A DNA stretch of 64,000 bases, taken from Chiloscyllium plagiosum (taxonomy: Eukaryota). Position 1 is the stretch's first letter. The number at the start of each line of letters is the position of its first letter. Shown here in pieces: positions 15,721 through 41,313 of the stretch. The translations under genes and the position numbers were made by a program. The DNA lies in NCBI RefSeq assembly GCF_004010195.1, contig NC_057722.1, positions 39,663,164 through 39,727,163 on the forward strand, written 5' to 3'. The notes beneath the pieces were generated by a model. The model saw only the letters and a list, made by a program, of their open reading frames with translations, was not told the DNA's origin and searched no databases.

Positions 15721-15981
15721 GTTTACACGTACATACCCAGGTCCCTGGCTCCTGCAACAGGCCCCCCCCCCCCTTAGAATTGTACACCCGATTTTATATT
15801 GTTTTTCATTGCTCTTCCTCTTAAAATGCATCATGTCACACTCTATTGAAACATGTGCCACCAGTGTGCTCACTCCACGAACCTATCTGTCTCTGGAGTT
15901 CTATACTATCTCCCTCACAGTTTATGATTCTTCCAAGTTTTGTATCATCTCTGAACTTTTATATTGCCCCTTGTATGACTA

Positions 15982-16325: not shown

Positions 16326-16554
16326 TTTAGGGTTCCAATACAGACCCTGGGGGAACATTACAAACCTTCCTCCAGCCTGAAAATATCCATTGACTATTAC
16401 TCCCTGTTTACTATCACTCAACTAATTTGGAAGTCATAGCTCTGTAGAATTTCATGGATGAATTAGGGATGTTTTTGTTAAAGCTGTGGTATAGTTCTGG
16501 TAACATCTTTTGTCTCTGAGTTTAAAAAGTTGAAAATTCAAATGCTACCGTGAC

Positions 16555-16646
16555 TTGTGTGCTCCAGATGCTCACTGATGTTACCTAGTATGGTGATGAA
16601 ATGTCTGAAAACTAACCTTCCAGCTCAGCGAGCAAACCTACATCCA
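16555..16646 (+). mobile_element. Penelope pLTR fragment with degenerate hammerhead
   Basis: tcaCTGAtgttacctagtatggtgatGAAAtgtctga...ctcagcgagcaaacctacatc, homologous to 30877-30953. Confidence 0.75.
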
Positions 16647-16757
16647 AATGATTTCTTCCTTCATGCTTTGTAAACTCTGGGGAAGGTGAAAGCTGTAAGT
16701 GCTAGGCACCTTTTTGTTAGTAATCTCATGTCCAGTTATATTATTTTCTACTTGCAG

Positions 16758-16864
16758 CATCCCATAACAAGGTGGATTGTAAAATATCTTTATGACCCAC
16801 CTGAGAAGGGTTATGAGAAAATGATGGCCCTTATTTCTGTTGAAGCAGAGAAAGCAGACCTGAG
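16758..16864 (+). CDS. NDUFB5: NDUFB5 exon 5
   Basis: ttgcag | [35 protein letters not shown](R) | gtacgt. Confidence 0.97.
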
Positions 16865-17553
16865 GTACGTTGTAGCAAATCTAAATATATATAATAAAGT
16901 AATCCGAACAATGCCGTTAAAAGCTTTGTAGTTCAAAATGTATACTAAAATGGAAGTTGTCATGTGTAAAAGGATGTTGGTGTCACTTTGCTAAGCATCC
17001 ACCTTTATGGATCACAGACCTTTTCAAAGATGGGGCAAATGTAACTTTAAAAAATGACTAATGCTGACTGTTTGTAGAATTGAAAACAACTGGTACGGCT
17101 GAGGTCTCATTTACATCTCCTATGCTTATCAACTGTGATTTATTTAGCATAGCACATTGTCTTTCAGTTTGCATCTTTTATATTAGTTTAGGTGAGGAAA
17201 GATCATGAGTGAAAAAGTGCTATTATCAAGAGGCAGATTTATGAAATCCGGCTCATCAAAAGTTGTTATATACCAGATTGTTTTAACTCTTGGGTAATCC
17301 AAAAAAACAGCTAGTAGAAGTTATCCCAAAATAGGCTTGCATATCAGTTGCCGGTTGAGTAAAATTAATGTTGACAGAAGCCTCAAAGAAAACATTCTAC
17401 TAATAGGCTAGGTGAAAATATGATTCTGAAGATTGGGGATTAAAAATTATTGGCAGACTAGGAATGGATTACTATTTTTAGATATACTTTCTAGTTCCAG
17501 AATTGTTTCAACTGCTTGCATTGCTAATTTTAGTTTTGCTTCCTAAATTATAG

Positions 17554-17674
17554 GCTGAAACAACTTGAGGTTCGTCGTCTGATGAGGGAGCGAGGTGATG
17601 GTGCTTGGTATCAATATGAAACTCTGGACAAAAACTTGATCGATAATTCTCATAAATCAAACCCAGATTATTAG
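17554..17674 (+). CDS. NDUFB5: NDUFB5 exon 6 (to stop)
   Basis: tatag | (R)[39 protein letters not shown]; the six exons sum to 561 nt = 186 aa + stop. Confidence 0.97.
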
Positions 17675-17736
17675 GAAGACAAAGATTGCTGGGAAGTGCT
17701 AATTATTAACACAAAGAATGTGAAAACAAGTTCTTT

Positions 17737-18620: not shown

Positions 18621-20579
18621 AGTTCTATAAAGATCTGGAATAAAAGCTAGACTTTAATAAAAATTATCATGAAATTGTTGGATAATTGTAAAATCTCAAA
18701 GGATTATACTTGTGTAATTTTAATGGGGAAATTCCTACATCATGGTTTAGTATCTGTGACTCCACTTCCATGCCTGATTATTTCACATTTAACTCCATTC
18801 GAAGTAGCCCAACATCTCACTTGGTTGTGACAAATAACGATGGCGACTGGAAATATGGATTAAATGTTGGTTTCAATGAAGAATCTTTGAATTCAACATT
18901 AGCTCTTTCTCTCTTCACAAATGCTTCCTGACTACCTGCATTTCTCCAGCATTTTCTACTTTCATTTTGGATTTCCAGCATCAGCAGTATTTAGCTTTAA
19001 TTAAATGCTAGTCTTGATACTTACCCTTGAATCCAGAGAATGAGTTTTCTTCTAAATTGAGAAGGGACAGTAAGATGTGGAAGAAAATTTAGTAAATAGC
19101 TTATGAAAAATTGTGTGCTCAGTGCTGGTGTGCTGAATTCTTGAGTTCTTGTGGTAATTATATTGCAACTGGGGTCAATCTGTACTTAACAACAGATTTT
19201 GGAGAAGAAATTTACTGGGGTCTGCAATCATGATTGTCATTCGTCTGTCCCTGTGGACGTGATCAAACTGGGCAATGTCAAATTTTGCTAACTTGTTTAA
19301 TGTCTCCTATCTTCTACTGTATATTTCTCTTTTTCATTTTGTTTTTCTTACACACCCTCATTTCATTTCCTTAAAACCTAATATACTTTTAACATTTCCC
19401 ATTTCTGATAAAAGGTCATAATCTGAAAAGTTAGCTCTGTGTGTCTGCACACACATGCTGCCAGATCTATTGAGTACTTCCAGCATTTTCTGTTGTTATT
19501 TGATTTCTAGAATTCAGTGTTTTGCTTTTACATGTCAAATTAAATTTGATTCTATTGTTAGTAATGGGGTTTTACCAACTAGTTTTAATTTAGCTATCGA
19601 ATAAGATTAAACATGAAGAAAAACATTTTTTTTCAAATAATGGAATCCTTACATAAATGTTATCTCCAATTCTAAAGTCTTTACAAAATTATTTTGTATA
19701 TTATCAAAGCTGTATTTTTACTTGATCAATTTGTATTGTTTGTCCTCCAATATTCCATTAAATTTCCAATTAAATTTTTTATGTGTCTTTGGACATTTGT
19801 TTCAAAAGATTCAGAATAATGGAGACAAAGATATCCATCATGAATGTTTGCTACTTTCCAGTTGATTGTGTATTTTACTACCCCCTACTGTTATAGTTGC
19901 TATGCTACAAATACATAAGATATTTTTATTCCTTTGACAAGTTTATATTTATGACCAGTTGGAAACATAATGTGACCAGGGATTCTACAGCAATTTGATC
20001 AGAAATATAAGTTTGAAACCCAGAAATAATAAATTGCTGTAAATATCCTAGATTTTGGCCTCTCTGAAGCATTTTTATTTTAAAAGACAATCTCTGTAAA
20101 TTGGTGATTTTTTTTTCACTTTGCAATAGGCAATGCATATCATCCTGTCCAGTAGTTTATCAGAAGTAAAAGCTGATGTCTTTCATTGAGCCTGTTTTGC
20201 TGGCATAGTGGTTTTCTGTACATTCCTGATCATCACTGCCAATCAAATTGACTATTTTCAACTTAAGTGGATCTTTTTGACAACTTAAGAATGGGATGAA
20301 GAATGTGGCCATTATTTCTATTATTGTACTACTTATCTTGCACTGCTTCTTAGAAAGTTGCCGTGTGTAATCCGTTTTGTTTCTAATTTTCAGTTTTTAC
20401 TGCCATCTGAGAGTATTAATTTATAATATCCATAGCTTCATTCAATTTAAGAGAGCCCATATTTACATACTGGAAATATTACTGGACAAGATGCTCCAAT
20501 TAATGCTCTACATTCAGAAGTTCAAATGCAGAAATGTAAATTTAAGTAATAGCTGAATCTGGGAAACAAACCTTGTTCT

Positions 20580-22630
20580 CCGAAATGGTGAACATGAGAC
20601 TACCAGTTGTTGTGGAAAAAATAATTGGTCCACTGATATCCTTTTGGGAAAGAAATTTTCCATCTTTACCTGGCCTGGTTTATGTGACTCCAAATGCCCT
20701 CTGAAATGGCTGGAAAGTTACTCAATTGTATCAAATGGTAATAATGGTGTCAAATATGAATAAAATTTGGAGCACCTTGCATTGAGAGCGATGTTAGAAA
20801 TGACTATGGCACACCCTCCCCAGTCAACCCTGTAAAGTTGCCCTTGCTAAGATCAGGAGAGAAGTTCCAACATTTGGAGTGCTATCTCTAACTAGTCAAA
20901 CAACAGTTGATATAATACTGGGACATCGATCACCATCAATGGCTAGTATCGTATTGACTGAGCTAACTGAGACCTAAAGGGCATACCTACTAGATTGACT
21001 TGGACAAAAGCTTACTTGACCTAATTCTCATCAATCTAAATCTCATGGGTGAATCTGTCAACGATATTGTTGGTAAGCCCCATCTTCCTGTTGGTACTAC
21101 CAGCATTCTAAATAGGATAGATACAGAATAAATCTCGAGACTCAACAGGCATCTCTGAGATGGCAAGAGCTATCAGCAGCAGAATTTTATTCAGGGGCAA
21201 TTGGTAATCTTGTGGTTTAGCATATGCCCGACTCTACAACTACCATCAAGCAAGTGAACACTGGTTAAATGAAGAATTCAGGAAAACTTATCACCAACAA
21301 TAGAAGACATATTGAAAAATGAGGGGATAACTTCATTAGTATATAATGCAATTATATTTACTCCCAAATAGTGGAAGCAGCATGCCATGGCAGAGCAAAG
21401 TTATCCCACAGTTAAAAGTATCAGATTAAAATTCTGCAGTCCTGCCACATCAAGTTGTGAATGGTGGTGGAGAACTAAAAGATAGAGGAGCCATCACAGG
21501 CATCCACTTCCTCAATGATGGGGAAGACTGGCATGTGAGTGTGAAAGATAAGATTGAAGCATTAGCAACCATCTTTAGGTGATAAGTTGACAATCCAAGA
21601 ACAAATTGCTGGAAAAATTCAGCATTTCTGAGTTCAGAACCCAGAACTCTGAAAAACTGAACCTAAAACATTAACTCTGCTTTGTTTCTACAGATGCTGC
21701 CAGACCTGTAGTGTTTTTCCAGCACTACAGAGATGTACAGCATGGAAACAGACCCTTCAGTCCATACCGACCAGATATCCCAACCCAATCTAGTCTCACC
21801 TGCTCTGTTTTTGTTTCTGATTTCCAGCATCCACAGTTCTTTGGTTATTTGTTAAGTTGATGATCCACTTTGATATCCTGAGGACCCCACCAGTACACGA
21901 GCCAGTCTTCAATTAATCCAGTTCCCTTTACCTGATATCAAGAAATGACTAGATGTACAAAACGACTATAGGTCCCAAATACATTGTAGTACTGAAGGTT
22001 TGTGATCCACAACTAGTTGCACCTCCACCAGTTTGTTCTGGCACAAGTACATCATTGGTATCTGACCGGCAATGTGGAAAGTTGTGGAGGTATAGATTGT
22101 CCCCACTAAAAAGCAGTTTCGTGTAAATACTGCCCCAGTAGTTTATAATCAATTATCAGCAAATAATGGAAGATGTTGTTGACAGTGCTATCAACGGCTA
22201 CTTACTCAACTATTACATGGTCACTGTTGTTCAGTTTGGGTTCCAGTAGAGCCTCATGGCTCCAGATCCTATTACAACCCTAGTCCTTACATGGACAAAA
22301 AAGTTCAAATCCAAAGGTGAAGTGATAGTAATGCCTTTTGACGTTAAACCAGTGTTTGATCATAAGTAACATCAAGGAGCAACAGCAAATTTGACATCAG
22401 TGGAGACCAGGGAGAAAACCTTTGGTTAGAGACACTAGTACCGAGGTAGCCGATTTTTGTCATTATTTGGAGATCATCATTTCAGTTCCAGGATATTACC
22501 ATTGACCTCCCCAGGATAGTTTCAAAGTGAAATATTTTCAATTGCTCAATGATCTTCCCTCTAATATAAGGCCAGAAGTTGAGATGTTTGATAATGATTG
22601 CACAGTATTCAGTACCATTTCTGACATCTC
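20580..22630 (+). mobile_element. Old CR1/L2-type LINE (5'/RT part) with a nested Penelope/CR1 insert at ~21598-21852
   Basis: Degenerate RT motifs; same family at 27312-27890, 40380-40830 and 53380-54900; insert flanked by taagttga..atcca near-duplication. Confidence 0.65.
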
Positions 22631-22842
22631 AGATATTGAAGTTGATTTATGGATTTACCCCTGGATCAAAGTGTAATGTGAGGTCCACCTCCCCACTCGC
22701 AGTTGAAGCATGTCAAATGGTAGTTAGTAAACTATACTTACAAAGCTGCACTTTGCTTTATATTATTCCTTGTAGTGTAAACACATTCACACTGCTTATG
22801 CTACATAATTTTCCACAAGTGTTTGCAAAAAGCAATTGTAAT

Positions 22843-25519
22843 AGACAATAGGTGCAGGAGTAGGCCATTCTGCCCTTCGAGCCTGCACCACCATTCAATA
22901 TGATCATGGCTGATCATCCTTAATCAGTATCCTGTTCCTGCCTTATCTCCATAACTCTTGATTCCACTATCCTTGAGAGCTCTATCCAACTCTTTCTTAA
23001 ATGAATCCAGAGACTGGGCCTCCACTGCCCTCTGGGGCAGAGCATTCCACACAGCCACCACTCTCTGGGTGAAGAACTTTCTCCTCATCTCTGTCCTAAA
23101 TGGCCTACCCCGTATTTTTAAGCTTTGTCCTCTGGTTNNNNNNNNNNNNNNNNNNNNNNNNNNNNNNNNNNNNNNNNNNNNNNNNNNNNNNNNNNNNNNN
23201 NNNNNNNNNNNNNNNNNNNNNNNNNNNNNNNNNNNNNNNNNNNNNNNNNNNNNNNNNNNNNNNNNNNNNNNNNNNNNNNNNNNNNNNNNNNNNNNNNNNN
23301 NNNNNNNNNNNNNNNNNNNNNNNNNNNNNNNNNNNNNNNNNNNNNNNNNNNNNNNNNNNNNNNNNNNNNNNNNNNNNNNNNNNNNNNNNNNNNNNNNNNN
23401 NNNNNNNNNNNNNNNNNNNNNNNNNNNNNNNNNNNNNNNNNNNNNNNNNNNNNNNACCCTGTAATCTCCTAACATCCTCCTCACATTTCACCCTGCCACC
23501 CAGCTTAGTATCATAAGCAAATTTGCTAATGATATTACTAATACCATCTTCTATATCATTAATATATATTGTAAAAAGCTGCAGTCCTAGCACCAATCCC
23601 TGCGGTACCCCAATGGTCACTGCCTGCCATTCTGAAATGGAGCCGTTTATCACTACTCTTTGTTTCCTGTCAGCCAACCAACTTTCAATCCAAGTTAGTA
23701 CTTTGCCCCTAATACCATGCGCCCTAATTTTGCTCACTTACCTCCTATGTGGGACTTTATCAAAAGCTTTCTGTAAGTCCAGGTACACTACATCTACTGG
23801 ATCTCCCTCGGATGCTGCCTGAATTGCTGTGCTCTTCCAGCACCACTGATCCAGATACTGGATCTCCCTCGTCCATCTTTAGAGTTACATTATCAAAAAA
23901 TTCCAGAAGATTAGTCAAGCATGATTTCCCCTTCATAAATCCATGCTGACTCTGACCTATCCTGTTACTACTATCCAGATGTGTCATAATTTCATCCTTT
24001 ATAATAGACTCCAGCATCTTTCCCATCACTGAGGTCAGACTAACTGGTCTATAATTTCCTGCTTTCTGTCTCCCACCTTTCTTAAAAAGTGGTACAACAT
24101 TAGCCACCCTCCAATCCGCAGGAACTGATCCCAAATCTATCGAACTCTGGAAAATAATCATCCATGTTTTCTCGAGCCACCTCCTTCAGTACCCTGGGAT
24201 GTAGACCATCAGGCCCCAGGTCCATCAACCTTCAGATCTAACAGTCTCTCCAACACCAATTCCTGGCAAATATAAATTCCTTTAGTTCAGGTCCTTTAGC
24301 CACTGTTACCTCAGGGAGATTGCTTGTGTCTTCCCCAGTGAACACAGATCTGAAGTACCAATTCAATTCTTCTGCCATTTCTTTGTTCCCCGTAATATAT
24401 TCCCCTGTTTCTGTCTTCAAGGGCCCAATTTTAGTCTTAACCATTTTTTTGCCTTTCACATAGCTAAAAAAGCTTTTACTATCCTCCTTTATATTATTGG
24501 CCAGTTTACCTTCATACCTCATTTTTTCTCTGCGTATTTCCTTCATATTAATCCTTTGTTGTTCTTTAAAAGCTTTCCAGTCCTCCGTTTTCCCACTTAT
24601 CTTTGCTATGTTATACTTTTTCTCTTTCTCTAATCCAAATTAGACAGGCAGGAGGCTGGAAGAACACAAGAAACCAGGCACCCTGCGTGCTGTGTTCTTC
24701 CAGCCTCCTGCCTGTCTGTATTATATTTAATATCGTATAAAATAAGTACATCTTTACAAGACAAGTTAATGATATCATCACTGCATTATAGAAGTGACTT
24801 GAAGGTATAAAGATTTTAGACCCCATCTTACCCCAAGTGTCACTTGAAACATTGCAACTGGGTCATTCCTGAAGAAGGGCCTGTGCCCGAAACGTCGAAT
24901 CTCCTGTTCCCTGGATGCTGCCTGACCTGCTGTGCTGTTCCAGCAATAAAGTTTCAACTTTGATNNNNNNNNNNNNNNNNNNNNNNNNNNNNNNNNNNNN
25001 NNNNNNNNNNNNNNNNNNNNNNNNNNNNNNNNNNNNNNNNNNNNNNNNNNNNNNNNNNNNNNNNNNNNNNNNNNNNNNNNNNNNNNNNNNNNNNNNNNNN
25101 NNNNNNNNNNNNNNNNNNNNNNNNNNNNNNNNNNNNNNNNNNNNNNNTTTTTTCTCTGCATATTTCCTTCTTAGTAATCCTCTGTTGTTCTTTAAAAGCT
25201 TCCCAATCCTCCGTTTTCCCACTTATCTTTGCTATGTTATACTTTTTCTCTTTTAATTTTATATGTTTTTTAATTTCCCTCGTCAGCCATGGCTACCCAT
25301 GCCTCCTCCTAGGATCTTTCTTCTTTTTTGGAATGAAATGATCCTGCATCTTCTGCATTATACACAGAAATATCTGCCATTGTTCCTCCACTGTCATCCC
25401 TGCTAAGGTATTGCAGCATTGAACTTTGGCCAGCTCCTCCCTCATAGCTCCATAGTTCCCTTTTATCAACTGAAAATATTGTCACTTCTGATTGTACCCT
25501 CTCCCTCTCAAATTGCAGA
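22843..25519 (-). mobile_element. Young CR1 LINE spanning two gaps, with nested pLTR pieces
   Basis: Long ORF pieces (GNYRPVSLTSVMGKMLESII, GVPQGLVLG, SKFAYDTKL); 6-bp TSD tgtaat (22837-22842, 25520-25525). Confidence 0.9.
24865..24900 (+). ncRNA. Minimal type-I hammerhead ribozyme motif in a Penelope pLTR (best-preserved copy)
   Basis: attc-CTGAAGA-a-GGGC-ctgt-GCCC-GAA-ACGT-C^gaat: stem I attc/gaat, stem II GGGC/GCCC, palindromic ACGT stem III, GUC cleavage triplet. Confidence 0.8.
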
Positions 25520-26287
25520 TGTAATGTGATTTGAAAGATGTCGAGATTGTCATACCTGTAGTGAGGTATAGTGTTATTCCGATGATATGAAAGACTAAGA
25601 CCATTCCAGAATTATAAACATCTTAAGCCCCTGAAGCAACTGAAAATTGCATAATATTACAACTGGATTCTGGATGCTTTAGACAGATAAGGACTAGACA
25701 CCATAATATTGCAAACCAATTAACTCTTTACACTAAGTACTGAGAATAGTGCAGAAGGATGTCAGTAGAACCTTCTTAATGTGATCTGCCATTATCTGAT
25801 CACTGATGATGCAATCCAACTATTAGTATTAATCACATATCTTACACCTCCCTGCAAATCTGCTTTACCCATCAACTGTTCACATCATAAACTCCCCCAA
25901 AATATCTTCAAATATTCTTGGCCCATTATGAGTAAATGAATAATGTATTTGCTCTATTATTTTCTCTTTGGCAAAGCAGCTGGAACCTGAGCTACAATAA
26001 TTAATTGAACACAAAGATGGTGAGGCCTGAGTAAGCCAACAATCTGAATTGAGATAGGTTAAAGTGGGAGCCTGAAAAATTAGGACATTTTCAGGTCTTA
26101 ACAAAGAAGTATACAGCTGCATCATTCACTACTGCTGCGATGATGAGAGTTACTCATTGAGGAACCAATCAGAAATTTGGAAAACATTCTGAAGACAATA
26201 TTGAAAATGAATAAATGACAATCTCCCAACTATTCCTAGAGGAACATTTTTTCTTTCTGGGGATACTATTTAGACAGTCTTTTTTAG

Positions 26288-26870
26288 GTCACAGAGTCAT
26301 ACAGCACTGAAACAGGCTCAACTCATCTGTGCTGACCAGGTTTCCAAAACTGAACTAGTCCTCATCTGTCTAAAGCATCCAGAACCCAGTTGTGATTTTA
26401 ATACAGTGTTCAGTTGTTTTGGGGCTAAAGATTTTTAAAATTCTGCAATGGTCTTTGCCTTTCACATCATCGAAATAACACTGCATCTCACTCTATGTGT
26501 GACAGTCTTGATATCTTTCATACTACAATTGCTTTTTGCAAACAAAAATGTCAAAAATTGTGTAACATAACCACGTGAAAATGTCCTTCTCAACCTTTCC
26601 TATTCACGTACCTGTCCAAATGTCTTTCAAATGTTGTAATTGTTCCCACCTCTACCACATCCTCTGACAACTGATTCCATATATGTACCACCCTCTGTGA
26701 AAATGTTACCGCTCTGGTTCCTTTTAAACCTTTCTGCTCTCACCTTAAACTTACGCCCTATAATTTTGGACTCTCCTACCCTGGGGAAAAGACCTTGGCT
26801 ATTTGCCTTATCTATGCCCCCCATGATTTTATAAACTTCTATGAGGTCACCTGTCAGCCTCCAGGGAAAA
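26288..26870 (-). mobile_element. CR1 3' end fragment interrupted by an inverted local copy (26362-26580)
   Basis: CR1 tail sequence at 26288-26361 resumes at ~26583. Confidence 0.7.
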
Positions 26871-27311
26871 AAAGTAGTTAGATTTTTTCCAGATCTTGCC
26901 GAACTTTAATATTCTCAAATTCCATTTGATCTTATCTTTAAGCTTTTTTAAGACACTCATCAGCTGTAGAATGTCTGTAGTTTGAGTCTTTACTGTTTCA
27001 TTTCAAAGAAAAAAATTAGTTCTCCCATAGCTTGCTAATGATAATCAATTGCTGTCTCAGTTTACATTTCCCCATTTAATACTTTTGAATTCTAACAATG
27101 GGCTTTATCCTGTTTGGATTGTAGAGTCTTATTCTTCTGGGACAACCTGCAATTGTAGTTCAACACTACCTTTTGGGAGGTTGATTTTAAGGTTTCAAGC
27201 TTTTCTTTCAATGCATCACAGTCATTTTGACTTTATACTTTGTTGTAGACTGAAGTATGTTAATTTCTACTAATGGAGTTGAGTCATTGTCCACACTATA
27301 TAAACGCTGAT

Positions 27312-27890
27312 CCATATAAATATTGTAGTTATATGTACAGGTCAGGCAGTGGGAGGTTTGCACAAATAACTCACTTCCTGATTCCTCAAAGCCTGTTCAC
27401 CATCCACAAGGCATAATCTAGGAGTGTGATGGAATAATCTCTACTTGCCTGGATGAATGCATGTCCAACAACACTCAAGAAGCTTTCCGAGGCAAAGCAA
27501 AATGCAACCCATGCATTCGCTCCCTCTATGACTAATGGACATTAGCAACAGTGTGTGCCATCTACAAGATGCACTGCAGAAATTCACCAAAAGCTCCTTA
27601 GTAGGCACCTTCCAAAACCACAAGGCTTCCCACCTAGGACAGCAGATATATACTAACACCACAATCTGCACATTCCTCCCCAAGCAATCCTGACTTGGAA
27701 ATATATCTTCATTCCTTCACTGCCATTGGGAACCTTGGAACTGCTGAACAGCATCAGTGAGTCAACCTACACCACATAGGCTGCAGTGGTTCAAGCAATC
27801 AGATTATAGCCATCTTCTCAAAGATAATAAATTGTAGATAATAAATGCTGGCCTAGCCAGTGAAAACCACATCCCATGAATGAATACAAA
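27312..27890 (+). mobile_element. 3' end of old CR1/L2-type LINE
   Basis: caaggca..aggagtgtgatggaata..ccaacaacactcaagaagc...aaatgctggcctagccagtga tail. Confidence 0.7.
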
Positions 27891-28644
27891 GAGCCAACTG
27901 GACCTACAGCATTCCGGTCTTAGTAACCTGAAGGAGTTTCTTTCACAAGGTGTGATTGCAGCTTCTCCAATCGTTAATGTCTTCTTCTGAATGAACAAAC
28001 AAGTTCACCTCCAATGATTTTCCTCAAAAAGCTGGTAGAGATTGCAGGGAGATCATCTGTGCTGCCACATATGTTGATTTTATAAGGTTCACAATCACAA
28101 TTTTCTAATATAGATAATTGACAATTTAAAGCAATTTTCTGATAGTTTATTGAGAAGCAGTCGTTTAGATAGCGCACATTTGTTAAATGGACAAAGAAAA
28201 TAAATATATGATCTGTGACAGATGAGAACACTTTGCCAATCCTGCAACCATTCTGTAAAATGGAGGAATAGGAGCTGTGTACTCCCACACTCTAGATGCC
28301 TTGTGGTCATTTGTGGTAGTCTGGTTGTCTTTGGCAGTCTCTGGTTTAATGGTCTTTGGAGAACTCCTGGTTTTCTGCCAAGGAGATAGTATGGCTTGTC
28401 TGCAAAAATCTTTTTGTTTCTTCTTCCCCGCTTATCCCTGTTAATACAGCTTATTTTGAAGATTAGCCATCTATGCTATATCAATCACCTGTCTAAATCC
28501 TCTTGGTCATTTAACATGGACAGCACCTAATGACATTGAATGACCATTGCCCGCTTATCCGCTTCCATTCGAACATTAGTTTTCATTCACTCTAAGAATA
28601 AAATCTTCCTGTTTTTCAATACAAACAATACAAAATAATTCAGC

Positions 28645-30953
28645 GAGTTTTGAGAAGATTTATAGCTCAGTTTGAGGTTTTGGATGTAGGTTTGCTCGCT
28701 GAGATGGGAGCTTCATTTCCAGACATTTCATCACCTTACTAGGTAACATCTTCAGTGGGCCTCAGGCAAAGCAGTGAACATGATTCCTGCTTTCTGTTTA
28801 TATGTTTGGGTTTCTTTGGGTTGGTGATGTTATTTCCTGTGGTGATGTCATTTCCTGTTCTTTTTCTCAGGGCTAGTAGATGGGGTCTATTTCGATGTGT
28901 TTGTTGATAGAGTTCCAGTTGGAATGCCATGCTTCTAGGAATTCTTGTGTGTGTCTCTGTTTGGCTTGTCCTAAAATGGATGTGTTGTCCCAGTCGAAGT
29001 GGTGTCCTTCCTTATCTGTATGTAAGGATACTAGTGAGAGAGATACTAGTGTAGTGTTTGTTACAGTTCTTGCAAGGTATTTTGTAAATGTCATTAGTTT
29101 TGCTTGTTGTCTGTATAGGGTCTTTCACTCAATACACAAGAAAGGAAAGCACTGGAAAGACTAAAAAAAATAAAAACATTGTTATCCTACCTGTAGACAA
29201 AGGACGCTTGACAGTCATTCTAAATCAAAGAGACTACATTGAGAAAGTGAATGCACTATTTACAGATACCAACACTTACCAACAAGTGGCAATAGATCCA
29301 ACCCCACAACTCAAGACCAAATCATGGCCTTACTCAAAAAACTTCAGAAATTTGGAGAAATAAATAAGACCGACTTCCAAAAAATGAAACCAGATGCATC
29401 CAACACACCATGCTTCTATGGATTACCCAAAATTCACAAACCAGGAGCCCACCTCAGACCCATAGTCTCGCTACCTGGAACACCAACTTACAGATTAGCC
29501 AAGGAGCTACACCAAAGATTGAAATACTTAATAGAAGACTCACGCCACTCCATCCTGAAGACTCACGCCACCCAAGAATTCCTGAAGACCATCAAAGACA
29601 CTAAGATAGAACAGGATGAAATAATGTTCTCCTTTGATGTAACAGCCCTGTTTACATCAATCAACATTAACCTGGCCAAGGAAACACTGACTACACTATT
29701 AGACGACCCAAAGACACATACTCCAAACACCACTAACTTCATCAGCAAGAACAGTATCGTCAAGCTACTGGACCTATTCCTTACCACACACTTCATCTTC
29801 AACAACAAAACCTACAGACAAACCAACAGAACACCCATGGGATCTCCGATATCAGGGTTCTTAGCAGAGGCAGTAACACAGATACTCGAACAAACAACTC
29901 TGCCAACTACCTTTGGATGACACCTTTGTCATCACTAAATGAAACAAATTAGAGGAAATCTTCAAGACCATCAGAAATACCCTTAATGGCATATAATTCA
30001 CTAAAGAGGAGGAAAACAACAATAAACTGCTATTCCTAGATGTCACAGTAGAGCAAACAGCCAATGGGCAACTTCAAACCAGCGTCTACAGGAAAACAAC
30101 AAATATGGACCAAATATTGAACTATAGAAGCAATCATCCCAACACCCACAAACGAAGCTGCATCAGAGCATTATTTCAATGAGCCAACACACACTGCAGC
30201 ACAAAGGAACTACGCAGAGCAGAAGAAAATTACCAATACCGTGTATTCAAAAAGAATGGGGACCCAATGAACACAGTCTGCCAATTTCTCAGCAACAAAC
30301 TTAAACAAGCAGACAAAACACATCCAGAAACACTAGCCACTCTCCCCTATATCAAAGACATGTCAGAAAACTGCCAGATTACTCAGACCCTTTGGCATCA
30401 TGGTAGCCCACATATCCACCAACACACTAAAACTGCAGCTAATGTACCTGAAAGACCCTATACAGACAACAAGCAAAACTAATGTCATTTATAAAATACT
30501 GTGCAAGAACTGTAACAAACACTACATTGCACAAACAGGCAGAAAACTAGCCACCAGGATACATGAATACCAACTAGCCACAAAATGATATGACTCTGTC
30601 ACTAGTATCCTTACATACAGATAAGGAAGGACACCACTTCGACTGGGACAACACATCCATCTTAGGACAAGCCAAGCAGAGACACGCACGAGAATTCCTA
30701 GAAGCATGGCATTCCAAACGGATGTCTCTCCACAATCACATCGAGTGAGACCCCATCTACCACCCCCTGAGAAAAAGATCAGGAAATGACATCACCGCAG
30801 GAAATAACATCACCACCCAAAGAAACCCAAACATATAAATAGAAAGCAGGAATCATGTACACTGCTTTGCCTGAGTCCCACTGAAGATGTTACCTAATAG
30901 GATGATGAAATGTCTGGAAATGAAGCTCCCAGCTCAGCGAGCAAACCTACATC
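28645..30953 (+). mobile_element. Penelope-like element (RT + GIY-YIG), 5'-truncated, with inverted left pLTR (28645-29040)
   Basis: VILPVDKGRLTVILN, FYGLPKIHKPGAHLRPIVS, FDVTALFTSI, TPMGSPISG; GIY-YIG NVIYKILCKNCNKHYIAQTGR; hammerhead motifs at 28718-28759 (-) and 30877-30918 (+). Confidence 0.93.
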
Positions 30954-32687
30954 TGTGAGTCATATAATGTCTCCTCTGTTTTCATTTACGAGAGGTTTGG
31001 TTGTATTTGCAGAAGGATAGTTACCGATATGGCATAGTTAAATGAGGGTTTGTGTTCCACAGAAAATGCCAAATAGGAATGTTAAGTGGACCCAAGTTTA
31101 AGGATATCCCAATTTCTAACAAACAAGTTCAAATGAAGATTCAGAACCTCTTCCTCCAACACATCATCTTCATTTTCGTCTACTTTTTTTCTGAAATAGT
31201 AACGTAAGGTTTACAACATCACCTTTCACCTTTATCTGGGAAGTATTGTTTTCACACCTCTTCTAGCTCCCCCTCAAAGAGAAATGGAAGAACTGCAGAA
31301 TCCACTGGTTCCAGGGTTGGTGTTTTTTTTATCATTTATTACTGATTCACATCATAACGTTTCAACTTCTGCAGTTGATGAATAAAGGAGATTCAAAGCT
31401 ACACAAACATCTCTGTTTAAAAAGGAAAATGCTGATTAGAAGTGACACACAGATTGTGTGTAATCTTTCTCCTATGTATAGCATGCACCTGCCCAGTACT
31501 CTTATTGAAATACCTTCTGCATCCTGAAGTTGAATGGAAGACAGATGGAGAAATTTAGGCTTCAACTAGACTGTGGGATCTGAAAGAATGAATATCCTGT
31601 TCCTTAGTTCTCTTGCCATTCTAGACTTCTGTATTTGCTATTAAGCAAGCTTTCTCACAAATTGACACTTCATTATCTGTAGCACTTTGGCAAATTTGAA
31701 CTGCTTCTGTTATTTCTTGTAAACTTCAGTTTGCAGTACAGATCGTCCACAAACACCAATCCCAGTATTTTTAAACAGTGCATGTCATGATTCTGAGACC
31801 ATTAAAATCTAGGATTGCTGAATCCTGGTTACAGTCAAAAAGCATCTAATTCCCTGTTGGAACAGGACTTGGTGAACAGAAGGCTTAGTTCCAAGAGTTG
31901 ATTCAGAATCACCAATGTTTGTCCACAGGGAATTTTTGTCCAACTGATGCTCCCACTGTTGAGCAGCAAGTTTGCTGTCATAAAAAGTACTTGAATTTTG
32001 AAATCTCACTTTAGGAGAAGTTCAGCTGATAACTCAGCTATTAAAAGAATCAGACTGGTCTCCCGGAAGCTACTAGTCAGTTATCAAAATATTCTTGGCA
32101 TTTCACAAGTCTTTGATTCAAATATACAATCTCAAGTAGAAAATATTCTCATGTTATTATACTTCATCAAACCACATGTGAGATAACTAAATATCTATTA
32201 CTTGCCCCAATTGCTGGCAGTCTTGCTCTATCAGGATATAAATTGGTCTTTCATTTCTTTGTGTAGGAGTTTGTTATGAAATGGTCCACAATCTCCATGT
32301 TAGTTAGAAGTGCTTTAAAATCCAATCCCAAAATCAAACTAGTAGCAGTACTAGGGGAACTGTACTATTGATTTCAATTTTTAGCCACTTGCCTCTAACA
32401 CAATATTATTTCCTATTGCAAGTGATACCTCTGCTATATTGATAGAGGCCTCCTATGTCAAAAAGATAGAATAAGATAATCAATAATCTCAACTATTCAA
32501 CTAACAGTCCGGAAAAATTCAACCACCATCATTAAATTGTTCTGCCTTTATTTAAAAACAAATATTACTTACAGATCTATTTTTAGTTCTATTCTGTGTT
32601 TCACAAATACCTTATGTGTCCTGCATGTAAGTGTCAACACTGAGAGTCATCCATTGTGTAAATGAGTGAGGATAAATGGACCTCCAT

Positions 32688-33029
32688 GGCAGCATGGTGG
32701 CTCATTGGTTAGCATTGCTGCCTCACAGTGCCAGGAACTCAGGTTCGATTCCAATGTTGGGGCGACTGTCTGTTTGCATATTCTTCCTGTGTTGTGTGGG
32801 TTTTCGCCAGGTGTTCTGGTTTCTTCCCACAGACCAAAGATATGCAATTTAGGTGGATTGGTCATGTTAAATTGCCCGTAGTGTTGAGGGCTGTGTAGGT
32901 TAGGTGCATTAAGACTGGAAATGCAGGGTAATAGGGTAAAGGGATGGGTCTGGGTGGGATGATCCTCAGAGGGCTGGTGTGGACTTGTTCGGCCAAATGG
33001 CCTGTTTCCACACTGCAGGAATTCTATGA
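32688..33029 (+). mobile_element. HE1-like SINE
   Basis: tRNA-like head, core and tail. Confidence 0.85.
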
Positions 33030-33079
33030 ATATCTCAACATTAGGTGGTGGTCTTCTTGTTCTGTGATGGAGGGTTAGA

Positions 33080-34820
33080 TCAGAGTACTAGATTTTCCAT
33101 CCATTCAGGTATGATTGAAAAATCCAACCCGTACAGACAATCAATTTCACTATGATACAGATACCCACCTCGATTTGATTCTGTTCTTCTCCAAACTGTC
33201 TTCCTTCTCACTTCTACTATTTGCTTCTAATATTTCTAGTGTTAGCAAGCTCCACATTCTCACTATTCTTTGGATAAAAACCATTCTTCTGAATTCCCCA
33301 TTGGATATTTGGTAACAATCTAATATTGATTGTCCCAGGTTATGTTCTTCCTTGCAAGAAGAAATACTTTCTGTTTGGTCAATCAGTTAAAACCTTTCAG
33401 AATTGTAAATAGATGTCTGTAAATTCACTCTTCAGGCTTCTTTTTATTAAAGAAAAGAAACTCAGCCTGTCAGTCCCTTCCTAATGTTATGTACACATAT
33501 TTCTGGTAGCATTCTTATAAAGCTTCTTTACCCTCTCCAAATCTTTTTCTTATAACATGGGAACCAGAAAAACACAAAGCACTCTCAAGTGCCATCTAAA
33601 TAACGTTCTATACAGACTTAAACACACAGAAATTGTTGGAGAAACTCAGCAGGTCTGGTAGCATCACTGGAGAGCTCTCTCCACAGATGTTTCACACCTG
33701 TTAAATTTCTCAGGCACTTTCTCATTTGTTTCAGATTTCCAGCATATGCAGTATTTTACTTTTATTCTAGGTAGGTTTAGCCTAATTTCTCTATGATTCG
33801 ATTCTATCCCTCTTGAAATAATGCCCGGTATATGGCTAGTTTATTTATAATGGCCTTGCGAATCTATGATGCAGCTTTCTATGATTGATATATTTATACT
33901 CCATGATCTCTTTGTTTCTCTACCCCACTGAGGCCTACACTTTCCATGTAAAAAATGACCTCTCAATTCTTTCAATCAAAATCTATTACCTCACACCTAT
34001 CTGTGTTGATTTGCCAATTATTTGCCCATTCTTCACATTTATTTATGGCTTCTGAAATTTATAGCAGTTTTCCTCAGTATTGACAGACCTCCAATTTGGT
34101 GTTATCCTTAAATTTGGAAATTGAATTAGTTTATTCCAAGATATAAATCATTAAGTACATTGTGAATAGCAGTCATCCCGAAACTATCCTAATGGAACGT
34201 CACTTCCCACTTTCTGCTACTCTTCTTTTTGCTTTGCAACCATCAAGTAATCCCTTCAGTGACTTGAACTCTGACTTAACATTCTTTGAGCTTATTCATT
34301 AGTACCACATTATGGAATGTTGTTTGGGAATACAGAGAAATTGCATTACCCCATTGTTACCTCCTCATAAACTTCAAAACATTTGGTCAAGAAAGATTTC
34401 CCATTTTGAAATCCATACTGACAATTCATAATTATTTATTTCTTTATTTATAGATCTTCTAATATTCTCTCATTTGCTAGGGATTCTATATTTTTCCTGC
34501 CACAGATATTAAGACTAATCCATAATTCTCTGGACATTTTCTGACCTCTTCTTAAATGTAGGAATTATATCATTTATCCTCCAGTATTCTGGCACTATAC
34601 ATTTTTCCAAAAAATTATTAAATGTATCTAGTAATGCCTTTGTTATCTCCAGATTCTTTTGTAATTTGTGGCTGCATTCCATCTGATCGAAGGGCATTAT
34701 CCTCTTTTGGTTTGATTAGTTTGTTCACCATTTTGAAATTTTAAATGCAATTATTCAATCTCTCACCTCATTGTTCAGTGACATGTCTACATATTCTATC
34801 TCCATGTTAAATACTGAAAT
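33080..34820 (-). mobile_element. Old CR1 LINE with a nested inverted pLTR remnant (~33620-33770)
   Basis: VPEYWRINDIIPTFKK and other RT remnants. Confidence 0.6.
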
Positions 34821-34823
34821 ACT

Positions 34824-35121
34824 GCGGCACAGTGGCTAAGTGGTTAGCACTGCTGCCTCACAGTACCAGGGTCCCAAGTTTGATTCCAGCCTCAGCCAAC
34901 TGTCTGTGTGGAATTTGCACATTCTCCCCATGTCTGCGTGGGTTTCCTCCAGGTGCTCCAGTTTCCTCCCATAGGCCAGGTGAGTTGGCCATGGTAAATT
35001 GCCCATAGTGTTAGGTGCATTAGTCAGAGGGAAATGGGTCTGGGTGGGTTACTCTTCGGAGGGTTGGCATAGACTGGTTGGGCCGAAGGGCCTGTTTCCA
35101 CACTGTAGGAAATCTAATCTA
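34824..35121 (+). mobile_element. HE1-like SINE
   Basis: gcggcacagtggctaagtggttagcactgctgcc...aatctaatct tail. Confidence 0.9.
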
Positions 35122-35377
35122 CAAAAAAAAATGAACACAAGTAAACAGAAATAGACTATTTGTCCCCTCAAGCCTGCTCAGCCATTCAATATGATCATGG
35201 CTTAAATTAGTTATTTAATATTTTTGCTATCATTCTATTGTTATCCATGAAACTACCTTTTCTATTTTTCAAAGGCCCTATTCTCAGCTCTTATTTTCAG
35301 TTGATGTGCATGTTAAATACTTATAAAAATGCATATTTTGTTTCATGTTCCTTTATAATTCAATTTCATAATACCAC

Positions 35378-36677
35378 ACATGTATTTGGAAAGGCAAGGA
35401 CTGATTAGGAATAGTCAACATGGCTTTGTACGTGGGAAATCATGTCTCACAAACTTGATTGAGTTTTTTTGAAGAAGTAACAAAGAGGATTGATGAGGGC
35501 AGAGTGGTAGATGTGATCTATATGGACTTCAGTAAGGCGTTCAACAAGGTTCCCCATGGGAAACAAGTTAGCAAGGTTCGGTCTCATGGAATATAGGGAG
35601 AACTAACCATTTGGATACAGAACTGGCTCAAAGGTAGAAGACAGAGGGTGGTGGTGAAGGGTTTTTCAGACTGGAGGCCTGTGTCAGTGGAGTGTCACAA
35701 GGATTGGTGCTGGGCCCTCTACTTTTTGTCATTTACATAAATGATTTGGATGAGAGCATAAGAGGTACAGTTAGTAAGTTTGCAGATGACACCAAAATTG
35801 GAGGTGTAGTCAGTGAAGAGGTTTACCTCAGATTACACGTGTTCTTGATCAGATGGGCCAATGGGCTGAGGAGTGGCAGATGGAGTTTAATTCAGATAAA
35901 TGTGGGGTGCTGCATTTTGGGAAAGAAAATCTTAGCAGGACTTACACATAATGGAAAGGTCCTCAGGAGTGTTGCTGAACAAAGAGACCTTGGAATGCAG
36001 GTTCATAGCTCCTTGAAAGTAGAGTTGCAGGTAGATAGGATAGTGAAGAAGACGTTTGCTTTCCTTTATTGGTCAGAGTATTGAGTACAGGTGTTGTGAG
36101 GTTATGATGCAGCTGAACAGGACAGTGGTTAGGCTATTTTTGGAATATTGCGTGCAGTTCTGGTGTCCTTCCTATTGGAAAGATGTTGTGAAACTTGAAA
36201 GGATTCAGAAAAGATTTACAAGGATGTTGCCATGGTTGGAGGATTTGAGCTATAGGGAGAGGTTGAATAGGCTAGGGCTGTTTTCTCTTGAGTGTCAGAG
36301 GCTGAGGGGTGACCTTATAAAGGTTTATTAAATCATGATGGGCATGGATAGGATAAATAGACAAAGTCTTTTCCCTGGGGTCGGGAGTCCAGAACTAGAG
36401 GGCACAGGTTTAGGGTGAGAAGAGGCCTAAGGGGCAACCTTTTCACGCAGAGGGCGGTATGTGTATGGAATGAGCTGCCAGAGGAAGTGGTGGAGGCAGT
36501 TTTACAATTGCAACATTTAAAAGGCATCTGGATGGGTATATGAATAGGAAGGGTTTGGAGGGATATGGGCTGGGTGCTGGCAGGTGGGACTAGATTTGGT
36601 TGGGATATCTGGTCGGCATGGATGAGTTGGACCGAAGGGTCTGTTTCCTTGCTGTACATCTCTATGACTGTATGACT
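35378..36677 (+). mobile_element. CR1/HER1 LINE, RT to 3' tail
   Basis: [30 protein letters not shown]; tail tctatgactgtatgact. Confidence 0.92.
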
Positions 36678-38172
36678 CTTTGCCTCCTAATCTCTGTATT
36701 TTCACTTAATATGCAGTCCTTTGCTGTCTATGTAGTAGTACATATCTCTTTCCTAAACTCTAACGTTCTCTTCTCCATGGTGACTCACTGGTGTTTAGGT
36801 TGTTCTCTATTTTTTAGAAAAATGCATTTTTTCCTGGACCCTGCTGAACACTGTACAAATGCTGTGATAAATAGTCATTTGCCGATAATTGTTTGAGATC
36901 TGATAGTATTCAAACTTATGAGAGGCATGGACACCACAGACCAGGAAATGCTACTTACAATGTTTGAAGAAAATAAATATAGGATTATCAGTACGATAAA
37001 CAAGTGTTCAGGACTTCTATTTTAATAATGAAGGATTGTTAGTTACAGAATGCGCTACTAGAAAAAAAGATGCAAACTATGTGGAAGAAAATGTGGTAGA
37101 ACACAAGTGAATGTACTTTGCTTTTGGAATTTAATCACATTAAAACATTTGGAATCATTCTAGAAATTGTGGTGGTATAACTGCAGGTTTCTGTAGGAGG
37201 ACATACTTTATAGACAAAATGACCTCCTTCATAAGTCATATTTTGTTTCTTGTTTGATTTTTGGCAAATGTGGTATTCATAATTGCCCAGTCAATTAAAA
37301 ACAAGATATGAAAGACCTAATTTGCAGTCAATGGACTTCTTACTGTTTGTGATGGTCATTTTGTGACTTTTGTGCCATGAATCATATTGGCAAATTCACT
37401 GGATAGTTTTCCCCAGCATTATTTGAATGCAAGTGTGTAGACTTTATCGAAGCCTTATTTGTTTTATTGTCAACGGGTTCTCAGTTTTTCAGTTTTGGTG
37501 CTGTTACTTCCAGACTGATACAACAGTGAAATAATTTGCCTCATGGAAACTTGATTTTGCACTGCATAACAGAGTATCACACTGGTCTTCAGCACATAGT
37601 GCAGAGACATTAAAAAAACTGATAATGACTTTCCCAGATGCTGTTTATGATGAAGTAAACAAGTTTGTTTTTATACAGCTATAATTTATGTTCTTTATGC
37701 ATTTAAAGTTCAGAAATTTTGTAATAGGTGGAATATACAATTATTTGCTATTCACTGATTAGAATGGCAGCTGAAGCCTTCTATCTTCATTAAATTAAGC
37801 AATGTGGAAGAATTGTACAACAGTGCTGTGCAATAAAATTGTAAATCTTTTAGAGATTTGCTGCTATAATGGGGGCAATTAAAGTAATATTAATGTACTA
37901 CAGTATCAATCTATTCTATTAACACTCATTGTTCTCTTGTTTTGACTCAGAGTGGATTGAAGATCTACTCTTTCAATTCAAATGATTAGATAATTGAATT
38001 ATTACTGTGAAAAAATTTATTTTGACTCATCAGTAGATGGCATCAGAATCTAAATTATATTGAATCAAGCATTAGTGTACCAATTGTAACAAGGTCAGGT
38101 AAATAGAATATGAGTTCCCTGATTGGGGCTGTTAAACTGGTCCAATCATAGAGTCCTGGCTGAGGAGTGTCA

Positions 38173-38508
38173 ACACCCTTGATCTATTCAGGGAGAGGTG
38201 GGCACCCGCAGAGAGTGGAGTGTATTGTTTCCCCGTCCAATTCTATTTTGACCTAATCCCTGACCCTCTCCTTCACTGTTTGATCACGCAGCATTGCCCT
38301 TTGATGTGAAGGGCACTGCTTGTCACTGGCCACTTGGTGTTTCTTTTCTTCCTGGTGGTGGAAACTGAATAAAGATTCGTGCACCTTGTGTCTTTCACTG
38401 TGTGTCACACCTGCGCGCACACAACATGGGTGCGGGGGAATAAATAAGCACTACTGCGGTTAGGCGGTAGTGAGGGGTAATAAAAAACTAAAAAAAAAGT
38501 AAAAAAAT
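38173..38508 (+). mobile_element. 5'-truncated Tx1/L1-type retroelement 3' end, copy 1
   Basis: NTLDLFRERWAP..VECIVSPSNSILT* ORF end, 3' hairpin 38449-38472, A-rich tail. Confidence 0.65.
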
Positions 38509-38651
38509 AAACATGAGTGTCAGGCATCCTGTTCACTCTGAGAGCTGGCTCTGGGGGAGCTGGACTGGTGTCGGAGACTCTCCCTTGTTTGTGTCGGGGG
38601 GCGGGGGGGGGGGTTACTGATTCTGGGAAAAAAAAATAAACAGGAGTGTCA

Positions 38652-39000
38652 ACACCCTTGAGCTATTCAGGGCTAGGTGGGCACTGCAGGGAGTGGAGTT
38701 CATATTTCCCCATCCAATTCTATTTTGATTCATTCCCTGCCCTCCCCTTCACTGTTTGATCACACAGCATTGTCCTTTGATGTGAAGGGCACTGCTTGTC
38801 ACTGGCTACAGGGGTGTTTCGTTTCTTCCTGGTGGTGGAAACTGTATAAAGACTTGTTCACCTTGTGTCTTTCACTGTGTCTCACACCTGCACACACGCA
38901 ACATGGGTGCAGGGGAAAAATAAGCACTACCGCAGTTAGGCGGTAGTGTGGGGGAGAAAAAAGAGAAAAACAATAAACAGAAACAAAACCATAAAAACAT
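38652..39000 (+). mobile_element. 5'-truncated Tx1/L1-type retroelement 3' end, copy 2
   Basis: Homologous to copy 1; 14-bp TSD aaacaggagtgtca (38638-38651, 39001-39014). Confidence 0.7.
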
Positions 39001-40162
39001 AAACAGGAGTGTCATAGGTTCTGTTCACTCTAAAAAAAACAGGAGTGTCTGAGATGGTCCACTCTGAGAGCTGGCTCTGATGAAGCTTGATCAGTGGCTT
39101 GATCATGTGAACATGAAAGTAAGAGGTGACTTGATAAAGGGATACCGGCCTCTGTGGTGTTATTTCAATTAGTTTCTCCCTTATAAGCTGCTCCTTGGAT
39201 TACATTTCCACATGTATGCTGACAACAGTCCACTTTACCACATATATCCTCTCTCAACTCTTCCATTGTCTCTTATTGAACTTAAAGCTTAATCATGGAA
39301 ATATCAAAACCATTGTCTTCATTACCTGTTCCTTAGCTACCAAGTCCATCAAAATTGCTACTTGTGACTAAACTGAACTACTATTCATAATGTTGGCATC
39401 AGTATGTCCCTAAGTTGAACTTCTGACCACATATCCACTGCATCAAAACTGCCTTTTTTAAATCAAAATCTCTGCAACACTCCTCTTACTTTCATCATTT
39501 CACCTGCTGTTGAAACCTTCATCTAAGACTCTGTTATCTCTAGACTTAGCTGTTCCAAGGACTTACAGCCAGCCTCCTTAGTTTCCATAAACTTGAGATT
39601 ATGTAAATCTCTTGCTGTCTGTAACTCATATCAAGTCCCATTCACCCACAACAGTTGTGCTTGTTGACCTACATTGACTCACAGTCTGAGAATGCCCAAT
39701 TTTTAATTTTGCTTCTGTATTTTCAAATGCCTTTTATGTCTTAGTGCTATTTGTTCTAGCCCCACAACACCCTAAGTTCTGTGCACTTCAATTCTTGATC
39801 CTTTGTTTATCTCTGATGTTAATCATTTTACTACTGGTGGTTATGCCTTTAATTGCCGAAGAGCTTAGCTCTGAATCAATTAGCATCTCTTTCTCCATGA
39901 GAACATATCCTAAAAGCAGCTTTTAGTCATCTATTGTATCTGACTCAGTATCAAGTTTTGTTTTTGATAGTCTTTTATTCTCATGATGTACTTTGGAACC
40001 TTTACCTCATTAACGTACTGCAAAGGAATTATATAATAATAAATTACTGTTATACTTGTAATAGTTGAATCAGAACTGTTTCTGTAGGATTCTAAGTTGC
40101 ATCCTTTGAAAGTATTAAATACATTTGATAGGTGATAATACTAGAATGATTGCTTTCTAGTG

Positions 40163-40242
40163 GAATGGCTTCTTAGACAAAGTAAAGGATATGAACCTTA
40201 ACAACATTCCCGCTACACCATTGATGACGTATGCTTCATAGC
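40163..40242 (+). repeat. Exact 80-bp copy of 40606-40685
   Basis: gaatggcttcttagac...gcttcatagc is identical at both positions. Confidence 0.9.
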
Positions 40243-41313
40243 ATACGTAGTAAAGCTGTTTTGCAATCTAGATCTCATGACAATTGTTATATATTGAAAG
40301 AAAAAAATATAAACTTTAAAATATAACCAGTACAGATAACTGATTAGATTTTATGTGGAAATTACTGAAAGCAGAAATACTATAGAAGTCCATGAAAACA
40401 ATTAAACTGAAGGTGGAGACTCAACAATCATTCCTCTCCTGGTATTTAATAGATCTCAGCATGCCAGTGAATACAAGTCTGAAGTGTTTGCAATCTTCTT
40501 CAATGAAAAGTGCTGAGTGAATGACCCATCTAAGCTTCATCCTGAGGATCCCTGCATCACATTTGCCAGTCTTCAACAAAATCTATGTACTCCATGTGAT
40601 GTTAAGAATGGCTTCTTAGACAAAGTAAAGGATATGAACCTTAACAACATTCCCGCTACACCATTGATGACGTATGCTTCATAGCTAACCACACTCCTAG
40701 CTGAATTGTTCTAGTAGAGCTAAGACACTGGCATCTAATGAACAATGTGCAAACTATCCAGGTATGTCCTGTCCACAAAAGCAGAACAAATCCATTCTGA
40801 TCAGATACCAGCCCATCAATCTCCTATTAAACATCAACAAAGTCAATTCTAGGAGGAAGAGGCTGTGGAATTTCAAAATCAGATGTCATATTGGAGTATG
40901 TGTGAGAATCAAAAATGACATTCCTTTTGCTTTTCCAACCTAAAGGCTTATTTGCCTTTTTGCTAAAGCATCCAATGAATGATGCAAAGAAACAACTCAA
41001 GGTGTCTCCCATTTCCTGAGTGTTTGTCCATATTCCAACTAACACGTCTTAAAGGTATTACTTTCTTCAAACACAGATGTACTTAGAGAAATAATTTATA
41101 TTCCTTGCAATCTAAAAATTGCTTCTCTATTTTACAGATTAACCAGTTGTTAAGTCTTCGTCTTTTCCTTTTTTTCCTGTTTATCACTGAAAATGAAGAT
41201 TTCGATTTGAGGAATGCAAAAAAAATCTTGATTATTTAGAGTCATGGAGTGATTCATCATGGAAACAGATCTTTTGGTGCAAATAGTCCACTCCGACAAT
41301 GTTCCCAATCTAA

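Follow-up and report, generated by a model that had tools for sequence, protein, structure and literature searches.

In a 64,000-nucleotide stretch of the Chiloscyllium plagiosum genome (contig NC_057722.1, positions 39,663,164 to 39,727,163; the window), eight intervals between positions 19,000 and 41,230 lie amid repeats between the genes NDUFB5 and USP13. An earlier sequence-only reading had taken them for the decayed giant exon of a lost minus-strand gene. Our analysis suggests that the intervals are probably very old, neutrally decayed remnants of open reading frame 2 (ORF2) of long interspersed nuclear elements (LINEs), mostly of CR1 type, lying on the minus strand and cut by younger insertions. 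The region as a whole is most likely ordinary repeat-filled intergenic DNA with nested LINE debris, and in this favored reading the debris would be without function. The evidence base is the window itself, one CR1-like metagenome contig and protein libraries. Further LINE references were sought; the metagenomes gave that single locus (L001), and viral contigs and bacterial genomes gave none.

Self-comparison of positions 19,000 to 41,230 assigned about 14.5 kb to repeats and 0.5 kb to N, and left 7.3 kb without confident assignment. The eight intervals comprise 6,108 nt, and 448 nt of these are confidently repeat. Their description as free of transposable elements thus mostly holds at ordinary sensitivity, except that those at 22.6 kb and 40.9 kb hold LINE sequence. 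The interval at 22.6–22.8 kb starts within the plus-strand reverse transcriptase (RT) of a second LINE family, and 40,483–40,872 matches copies at 21.85 kb and 54.6 kb (E values of 1.4e-12 and 2e-12). For this family (20.6–22.6 kb and 40.5–40.9 kb), both dispersed copies and RT homology were found; its old copies are mutually 64–70% identical, and the RT at 20.6–22.6 kb covers profile positions 58–211 with 38.1 bits, compared with a best score of 18.3 in 30 shuffles. The interval at 25.5–26.3 kb is enclosed by, and partly built from, an inverted pair.

The repeat-free pieces carry a period-3 signal. When nine pieces were pooled, period-3 power reached z = 3.95, 2.81 and 1.57 at windows of 90, 150 and 240 nt, whereas the same test on 12 control pieces gave 0.69, -0.10 and -0.42. 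Among seven periods tested, 3 alone stands out. A three-phase hidden Markov model (HMM) with frameshifts scored 23.4, compared with 4.9 ± 2.6 for 14 shuffles (maximum 10.9) and 6.1 for control introns. Individually, one of the nine pieces has a z above 2. The main sources are 31.06–32.65 kb, 19.5–20.6 kb, 39.85–40.09 kb and 26.9–27.3 kb, the third of which is the end of an L2-like copy and lies outside the eight intervals. Leave-one-out shares were -1.5 for 36.8–38.2 kb, -1.5 for 19.0–19.4 kb, 0.5 for 25.7–26.3 kb and 0.4 for 40.87–41.2 kb.

LINE copies of known origin behave in the same way. Old copies in the window gave period-3 log-likelihood ratios of 14.2 in 3,959 nt and 13.4 in 1,612 nt, with in-phase stops at 0.90 and 1.05 of expectation. 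The four core pieces gave a ratio of 21.0 in 3,871 nt, with stops at 0.96 of expectation on the minus strand and 0.94 on the plus strand. Periodicity that is kept while stop depletion is lost is common to the repeat-free pieces and the old LINE copies. Because the period-3 signal exceeds chance, as it does in those copies, coding ancestry of the pieces is likely. The old LINE copies lack stop depletion, and therefore the stop-density test has no power at this age. The proposed check by stop density and codon periodicity on each strand was accordingly divided in outcome: stops match shuffled sequence, period 3 exceeds it, and the strands could not be told apart.

A CR1-type RT protein profile was built from L001 and the younger copies in the window. 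It gave weak matches in four of the eight pieces, all on the minus strand. The best minus-strand matches at 31.2, 27.2, 26.1 and 19.7 kb were reached by 10, 2, 6 and 4 of 150 shuffles, respectively, and a Fisher combination over all eight pieces gave p = 0.020 for the minus strand and 0.875 for the plus strand. The match at 27.2 kb, which coincides with a peptide quoted in the sequence-only reading, has an E value of 0.46, compared with 6.2 for the best of 17 reversed-decoy matches. Along the minus strand the matches follow the order of the profile, from 31.2 kb (positions 165–223) through 27.2 kb (246–307) to 26.1 kb (344–367), and younger elements separate them. Of 5000 null draws, 22 and 17 (two score offsets) scored at least as high as the best collinear minus-strand chain in the eight pieces together, compared with 4136 and 3641 for the plus strand; for a chain restricted to the four pieces of 25.7–32.6 kb the counts were 5 and 3. 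The matches at 19.66–19.85 kb and 26.09–26.16 kb cover the same profile region, which implies two CR1 copies. In addition, a basic stretch at 41.15 kb that had been described as resembling a nuclear localization signal (NLS) aligns, together with the next Trp, to the basic stretch and Trp motif in the CR1 linker of the younger copies. This alignment was reached by 1 of 1500 shuffles, but it was picked among 400 profile-strand-interval tests.

The order of the RT matches suggests that one ancient CR1 copy ran on the minus strand from about 31–32 kb down to 26 kb. It would have been split by the element at 28.6–31.06 kb, by the LINE pieces at 27.3–27.9 kb, and by a CR1 tail with an inverted arm at 26.3–26.9 kb. 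The remainder of the piece upstream, 31248–32652, is likely to be upstream ORF2 of the same copy, with an alignment that is not significant. A second ancient copy would have left the piece at 19.7 kb, and 41.1 kb may be a fragment of a CR1 linker. The CR1 copies would have decayed neutrally and been cut apart by younger insertions, and at such an age a 3' tail and target-site duplication would not be expected to survive.

Several results weigh against this assignment. The CR1 matches are individually weak, with HMMER E values of 0.46–19 in a search of about 2,550 pieces. Both the profile and the chain test were picked once the matches had been seen, and the chain null resamples only 150 shuffles per piece. 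Neither Viterbi nor forward alignment, both allowing for frameshifts, confirmed the weak matches; since both also failed to recover the LINE piece known at 40.5 kb, their power is low. Position-matched DNA alignments gave no confirmation either, with 0 of 10 below 5% and the best at 18 of 200. Pfam recognized no RT here, nor in known old LINE; at the curated cut-off it recovered 0 of 18 long frames, three of them known old LINE, and 0 of 13 and 0 of 13 short frames. Half of the eight pieces (19.0–19.4, 27.9–28.6, 36.8–38.2 and 40.87–41.2 kb) have no RT match, and the first three of these, 2.4 kb together, have no assignment of any kind. Outside the short CR1 matches, the remaining parts of the pieces are assigned by neighborhood only. 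The gap at profile positions 307–344 spans about 320 nt of unassigned DNA, compared with 111 nt expected. A generic coding model cannot tell the strand (pooled z of 0.72 plus, 0.73 minus). Finally, the old CR1 copy at 33–34.8 kb aligns easily yet has no period-3 signal, the opposite of the repeat-free pieces.

The catalytic Asp-Asp motif of the RT was not seen; it is expected at the profile break 223–246, where the younger elements lie. Profiles made from the copy at 61.8–63.1 kb gave no ordered match to the APE endonuclease in 31.06–32.65 kb or 36.8–38.2 kb, a search of low power with a shallow profile. No second copy of the repeat-free pieces was found within the 64 kb. An L2-type RT on the plus strand at 31.9–32.05 kb, suggested by eye, found no support, and a Protein Data Bank (PDB) search with one frame at 22 kb was uninformative. 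CR1 membership is shown for the clearly alignable copies only; for the pieces of the sequence-only reading it is putative.

The peptides quoted in that reading are all present on the minus strand where it had placed them, at 27095–27232, 31558–31725, 31136–31186, 41152–41181 and 40839–40967. The properties attributed to them did not withstand comparison with shuffled sequence. Runs broken by isolated stops had been described, but the minus strand of the eight intervals contains 402 stops, compared with 423 ± 13.5 in 300 dinucleotide shuffles, and the cheapest stop and frameshift parse costs 82.5, compared with 84.9 ± 5.3 in shuffles. An open reading frame longer than chance was found in two of 16 interval-strand tests: 126 codons on the minus strand of 27.9–28.6 kb (p = 0.007) and 67 codons on the plus strand of 22.6–22.8 kb (p = 0.01), the sole long frame there. 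In the former piece, which has no repeat assignment, overlapping frames of 105 and 126 codons are open on the minus strand at 27974–28475. A search of the ESM Atlas with the 105-codon frame was blank.

A disordered protein rich in S, T, N, K and E had also been proposed. With base composition held fixed, a disordered-exon model gave a pooled z of 0.11, and single intervals ranged from -1.3 to 1.1 (seven intervals tested). Under the same model, simulated exons decayed by 10, 20, 30 and 40% averaged z = 10.2, 5.1, 3.2 and 2.1, with four runs per level, a lowest single run of 0.6 and an amino acid composition that we assumed. The S/T/N/K/E appearance comes from base composition. The minus strand is A-rich in seven of the eight pieces (A content of 0.30–0.41; 0.38 in the old minus-strand CR1 copy of the window), and since CR1 sense strands are A-rich, any frame reads as rich in K, N, E and I, which explains the earlier impression. 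Moreover, the end of the 40.9-kb peptide (40839–40865) is the antisense of a plus-strand LINE copy, and the acidic peptide at 31.2 kb (31136–31186) is off-frame relative to the RT-like reading of the same stretch.

A single giant exon, from a host gene on the minus strand that died before the old LINEs arrived, is hard to maintain as the identity of the intervals, because LINE ORF2 gave the sole matches, one profile region is repeated, antisense LINE lies within an interval, one peptide is off-frame and the composition test was null. Of the sequence-only reading, decayed coding ancestry, the minus strand and fragmentation by younger transposable elements do agree with the data. In favor of such an exon are the A-rich minus strand and the phase patterns at 19.5 kb and 26.9 kb, which resemble minus-strand coding. 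About 7.3 kb would be available to it, and the missing stop depletion does not refute a coding origin at this age. Residual coding periodicity was found, but it is common to LINE relics and so not diagnostic, and 36.8–38.2, 19.0–19.4, 25.7–26.3 and 40.87–41.2 kb contribute little or none of it. No single non-repeating frame across the intervals emerged, and no S/T/N/K/E composition beyond base content, although simulated exons at 40% decay still average a signal. We consider this exon quite unlikely. The same doubt attaches to a narrower form, in which 19.9–20.6, 27.9–28.6 and 31.3–32.65 kb would be all that is left of a large exon, on the minus strand, from a vertebrate gene head to head with USP13, lost early in cartilaginous fishes and intact in another lineage.

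Searches for such a gene returned little, and nothing in the window or the protein libraries pointed to a host gene or to transcription running divergently from the USP13 promoter. Among the sequencing runs listed, DNA runs carried two organism labels and none was of RNA. A phmmer search with one 506-codon frame of 19.1–20.6 kb against 1.84 billion proteins gave a single match, a Clostridium Ig-repeat protein (P0002), which was rejected as chance; the search covered one frame of one interval, in a library where the presence of shark proteins was not established. Word-based protein searches with 19929–20396 and 31.2–31.7 kb were blank and carry no weight, as the same tool missed the known LINE RT at 22 kb. 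The ESM Atlas gave no usable match for two stop-free frames (recognition 1353 and 1185). CDCA3 lies head to head with USP5; for a CDCA3-like paralog, four short motifs gave one trivial match inside a repeat, and the candidate was dropped. Among the papers listed, none linked the NDUFB5-USP13 interval to a shark gene or synteny.

The pieces could instead be relics of other coding elements in mixed orientation, such as old L2 or other LINE clades, DNA transposons or long terminal repeat elements, with the CR1 matches arising by chance from composition. When pooled, the phases show almost no strand asymmetry and resemble those of the L2-like copies in the window, four of the 15 best reversed-decoy matches also lie in these pieces, and the piece at 25.7–26.3 kb sits between inverted arms. 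However, profiles of the second LINE family and of the L2-like and Penelope-like elements gave scattered, unordered matches only, whereas the CR1 chain is collinear and confined to the minus strand, and we regard such a mixture as unlikely. Plain non-coding AT-rich DNA, with peptides and periodicity by chance, would explain why stop density and composition scores do not differ from those of shuffles and why so few pieces have a period-3 signal of their own. It is highly improbable for the intervals as a whole, given that the pooled HMM score lies above all shuffles and the control introns and that no other period stands out, but 36.8–38.2 kb is probably DNA of this kind. Decayed LINE ORF2 remains the reading that we favor for the rest.

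The flanking genes proposed earlier were recovered by PDB matches on both sides. On the left, NDUFB5 starts at 2526 and has its last exon near 17.55–17.69 kb; its exon at 16740–16868 matches NDUFB5 in the PDB with an E value of 1.4e-12. The right flank is a gene of the USP5/USP13 family, matching PDB USP5 with an E value of 3.4e-9, which we take to be USP13 from synteny. The features are listed below.

Features of the window, in order of position within each group (flanking genes first).
Feature	Position	Strand	Evidence or remark
NDUFB5, left flank	2526..17700	+	PDB match, exon placement
First coding exon of presumed USP13, right flank	44843..44956	+	PDB USP5 match
Short dispersed repeat, family D1, 8 copies (presumably SINE-like)	19391..19530	.	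Adjoins and overlaps first interval
Weak CR1 RT C-terminal match, profile 309-370	19663..19854	-	E 2.0; 4/150 shuffles
Old LINE copy, second family, endonuclease side to RT	20621..22642	+	Copies at 10.9k, 40.5k, 54k; RT profile
Younger CR1-type copy with two assembly gaps	22783..25530	-	RVT_1 E 2.7e-13 and 1.3e-7
Inverted arms, ~170-190 nt, ~80% identical, around interval 25.5-26.3k	25530..26535	.	Self-comparison
Weak CR1 RT match, profile 344-367, third chain link	26087..26158	-	6/150 shuffles
Weak CR1 RT match, profile 246-307, second chain link	27074..27259	-	E 0.46; 2/150 shuffles
Two old LINE pieces, second family	27308..27879	+	Self-comparison
Piece without repeat assignment; minus open frames of 126 and 105 codons	27900..28620	.	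RT best match 57/150 shuffles
Younger RT element with inverted terminal duplicate (presumably Penelope-like)	28620..31057	+	RVT_1 E 1.3e-6; repeat families I1, I2, I4
Weak CR1 RT match, profile 165-223, first chain link	31062..31247	-	10/150 shuffles
Rest of piece with strongest period-3 signal	31248..32652	.	z 2.65
Old CR1 copy, clearly assignable, profile 39-396, period-3 gone	33050..34800	-	Profile match
Younger CR1-type copy	35369..36832	+	RVT_1 E 5.3e-7
AT-rich piece, no period-3 signal, no profile match (sequence-only reading: 37.1-38.0k)	36832..38163	.	
Old LINE copy, copies at 7.7k and 2.9k (presumably L2-like)	39051..40058	+	Self-comparison, profile
Old LINE copy, second family; antisense gives peptide end 40839-40865	40483..40872	+	Self-comparison
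'NLS' and next Trp, weak match to CR1 ORF2 linker	41098..41184	-	7.7 bits, 1/1500 shuffles

Further structure was seen within and around these features. A short repeat is inserted in the LINE copy at 20621–22642, near 21.65–21.85 kb. The inverted arms at 25530–25698 and 26355–26530 are separated by 657 nt; they may represent the termini of an old non-autonomous DNA element, or two copies of a single repeat. In the RT element at 28620–31057, the 3' part is repeated inverted at the 5' side with arms 90–95% identical. An 80-nt direct duplicate (40163–40242 and 40606–40685) is 100% identical and comes from inside an old LINE copy whose relatives in the window match it at 64–66% only; the sequence was either duplicated locally in recent time or doubled by a slip in the assembly. 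Tandem units of about 380 nt, 83% identical, lie at 38163–38539 and 38642–39031, with a partial third near 39.0 kb. Near-identical duplications at 60142–60693 (163-nt tandem unit) and 24522–25253 (106-nt block across an N gap) resemble scaffold-junction artifacts. Old CR1-like RT fragments were present in the first "repeat-free" controls, at 17900–18500, 45050–45640, 52070–52210, 55230–55400 and 56690–56830, which points to much unmasked CR1 in the region; the match at 55.2–55.4 kb may be a USP13 exon. Scans of the whole window for tRNAs and against Rfam gave no match.

As LINE debris the intervals would be of little consequence, since CR1 accounts for roughly one-fifth of the DNA in a shark genome (21.78% in the whale shark; PMC8455134). 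A lost gene, if true, would be an unrecorded vertebrate gene beside USP13. The lesson is methodological. Old LINE ORFs here keep period 3 after losing stop depletion and recognizable homology, and the A-rich LINE strand translates into K/N/E-rich peptides, so that ancient repeats left unmasked can pass for giant exons in decay.

Compared with the ORF2 of CR1-clade LINEs, which is built of endonuclease, linker and RT, the pieces show a weak collinear match to RT positions 165–367, the basic-plus-Trp linker motif at 41.1 kb and an A-rich sense strand, and they are surrounded by younger and intermediate copies (22.8–25.5, 33–34.8 and 35.4–36.8 kb). In contrast to those copies they are far more decayed, none is significant alone, and the catalytic motif and the endonuclease were not detected. 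The second old LINE family (20.6–22.6, 27.3–27.9, 40.5–40.9, 53.4–55 and 10.9 kb) accounts for the start of the 22.6-kb interval and the end of the 40.9-kb peptide, but it lies on the plus strand, and the quoted peptides there are thus antisense readings. Giant exons occur in germline or scaffold genes, for example those of the TEX15 or RAD51AP2 type. Unitary pseudogenes of such exons would share the multi-kilobase decayed coding DNA and the A-rich sense strand; unlike them, the pieces show no splice structure, have no composition signal beyond nucleotide content and contain repeated LINE-like regions instead.

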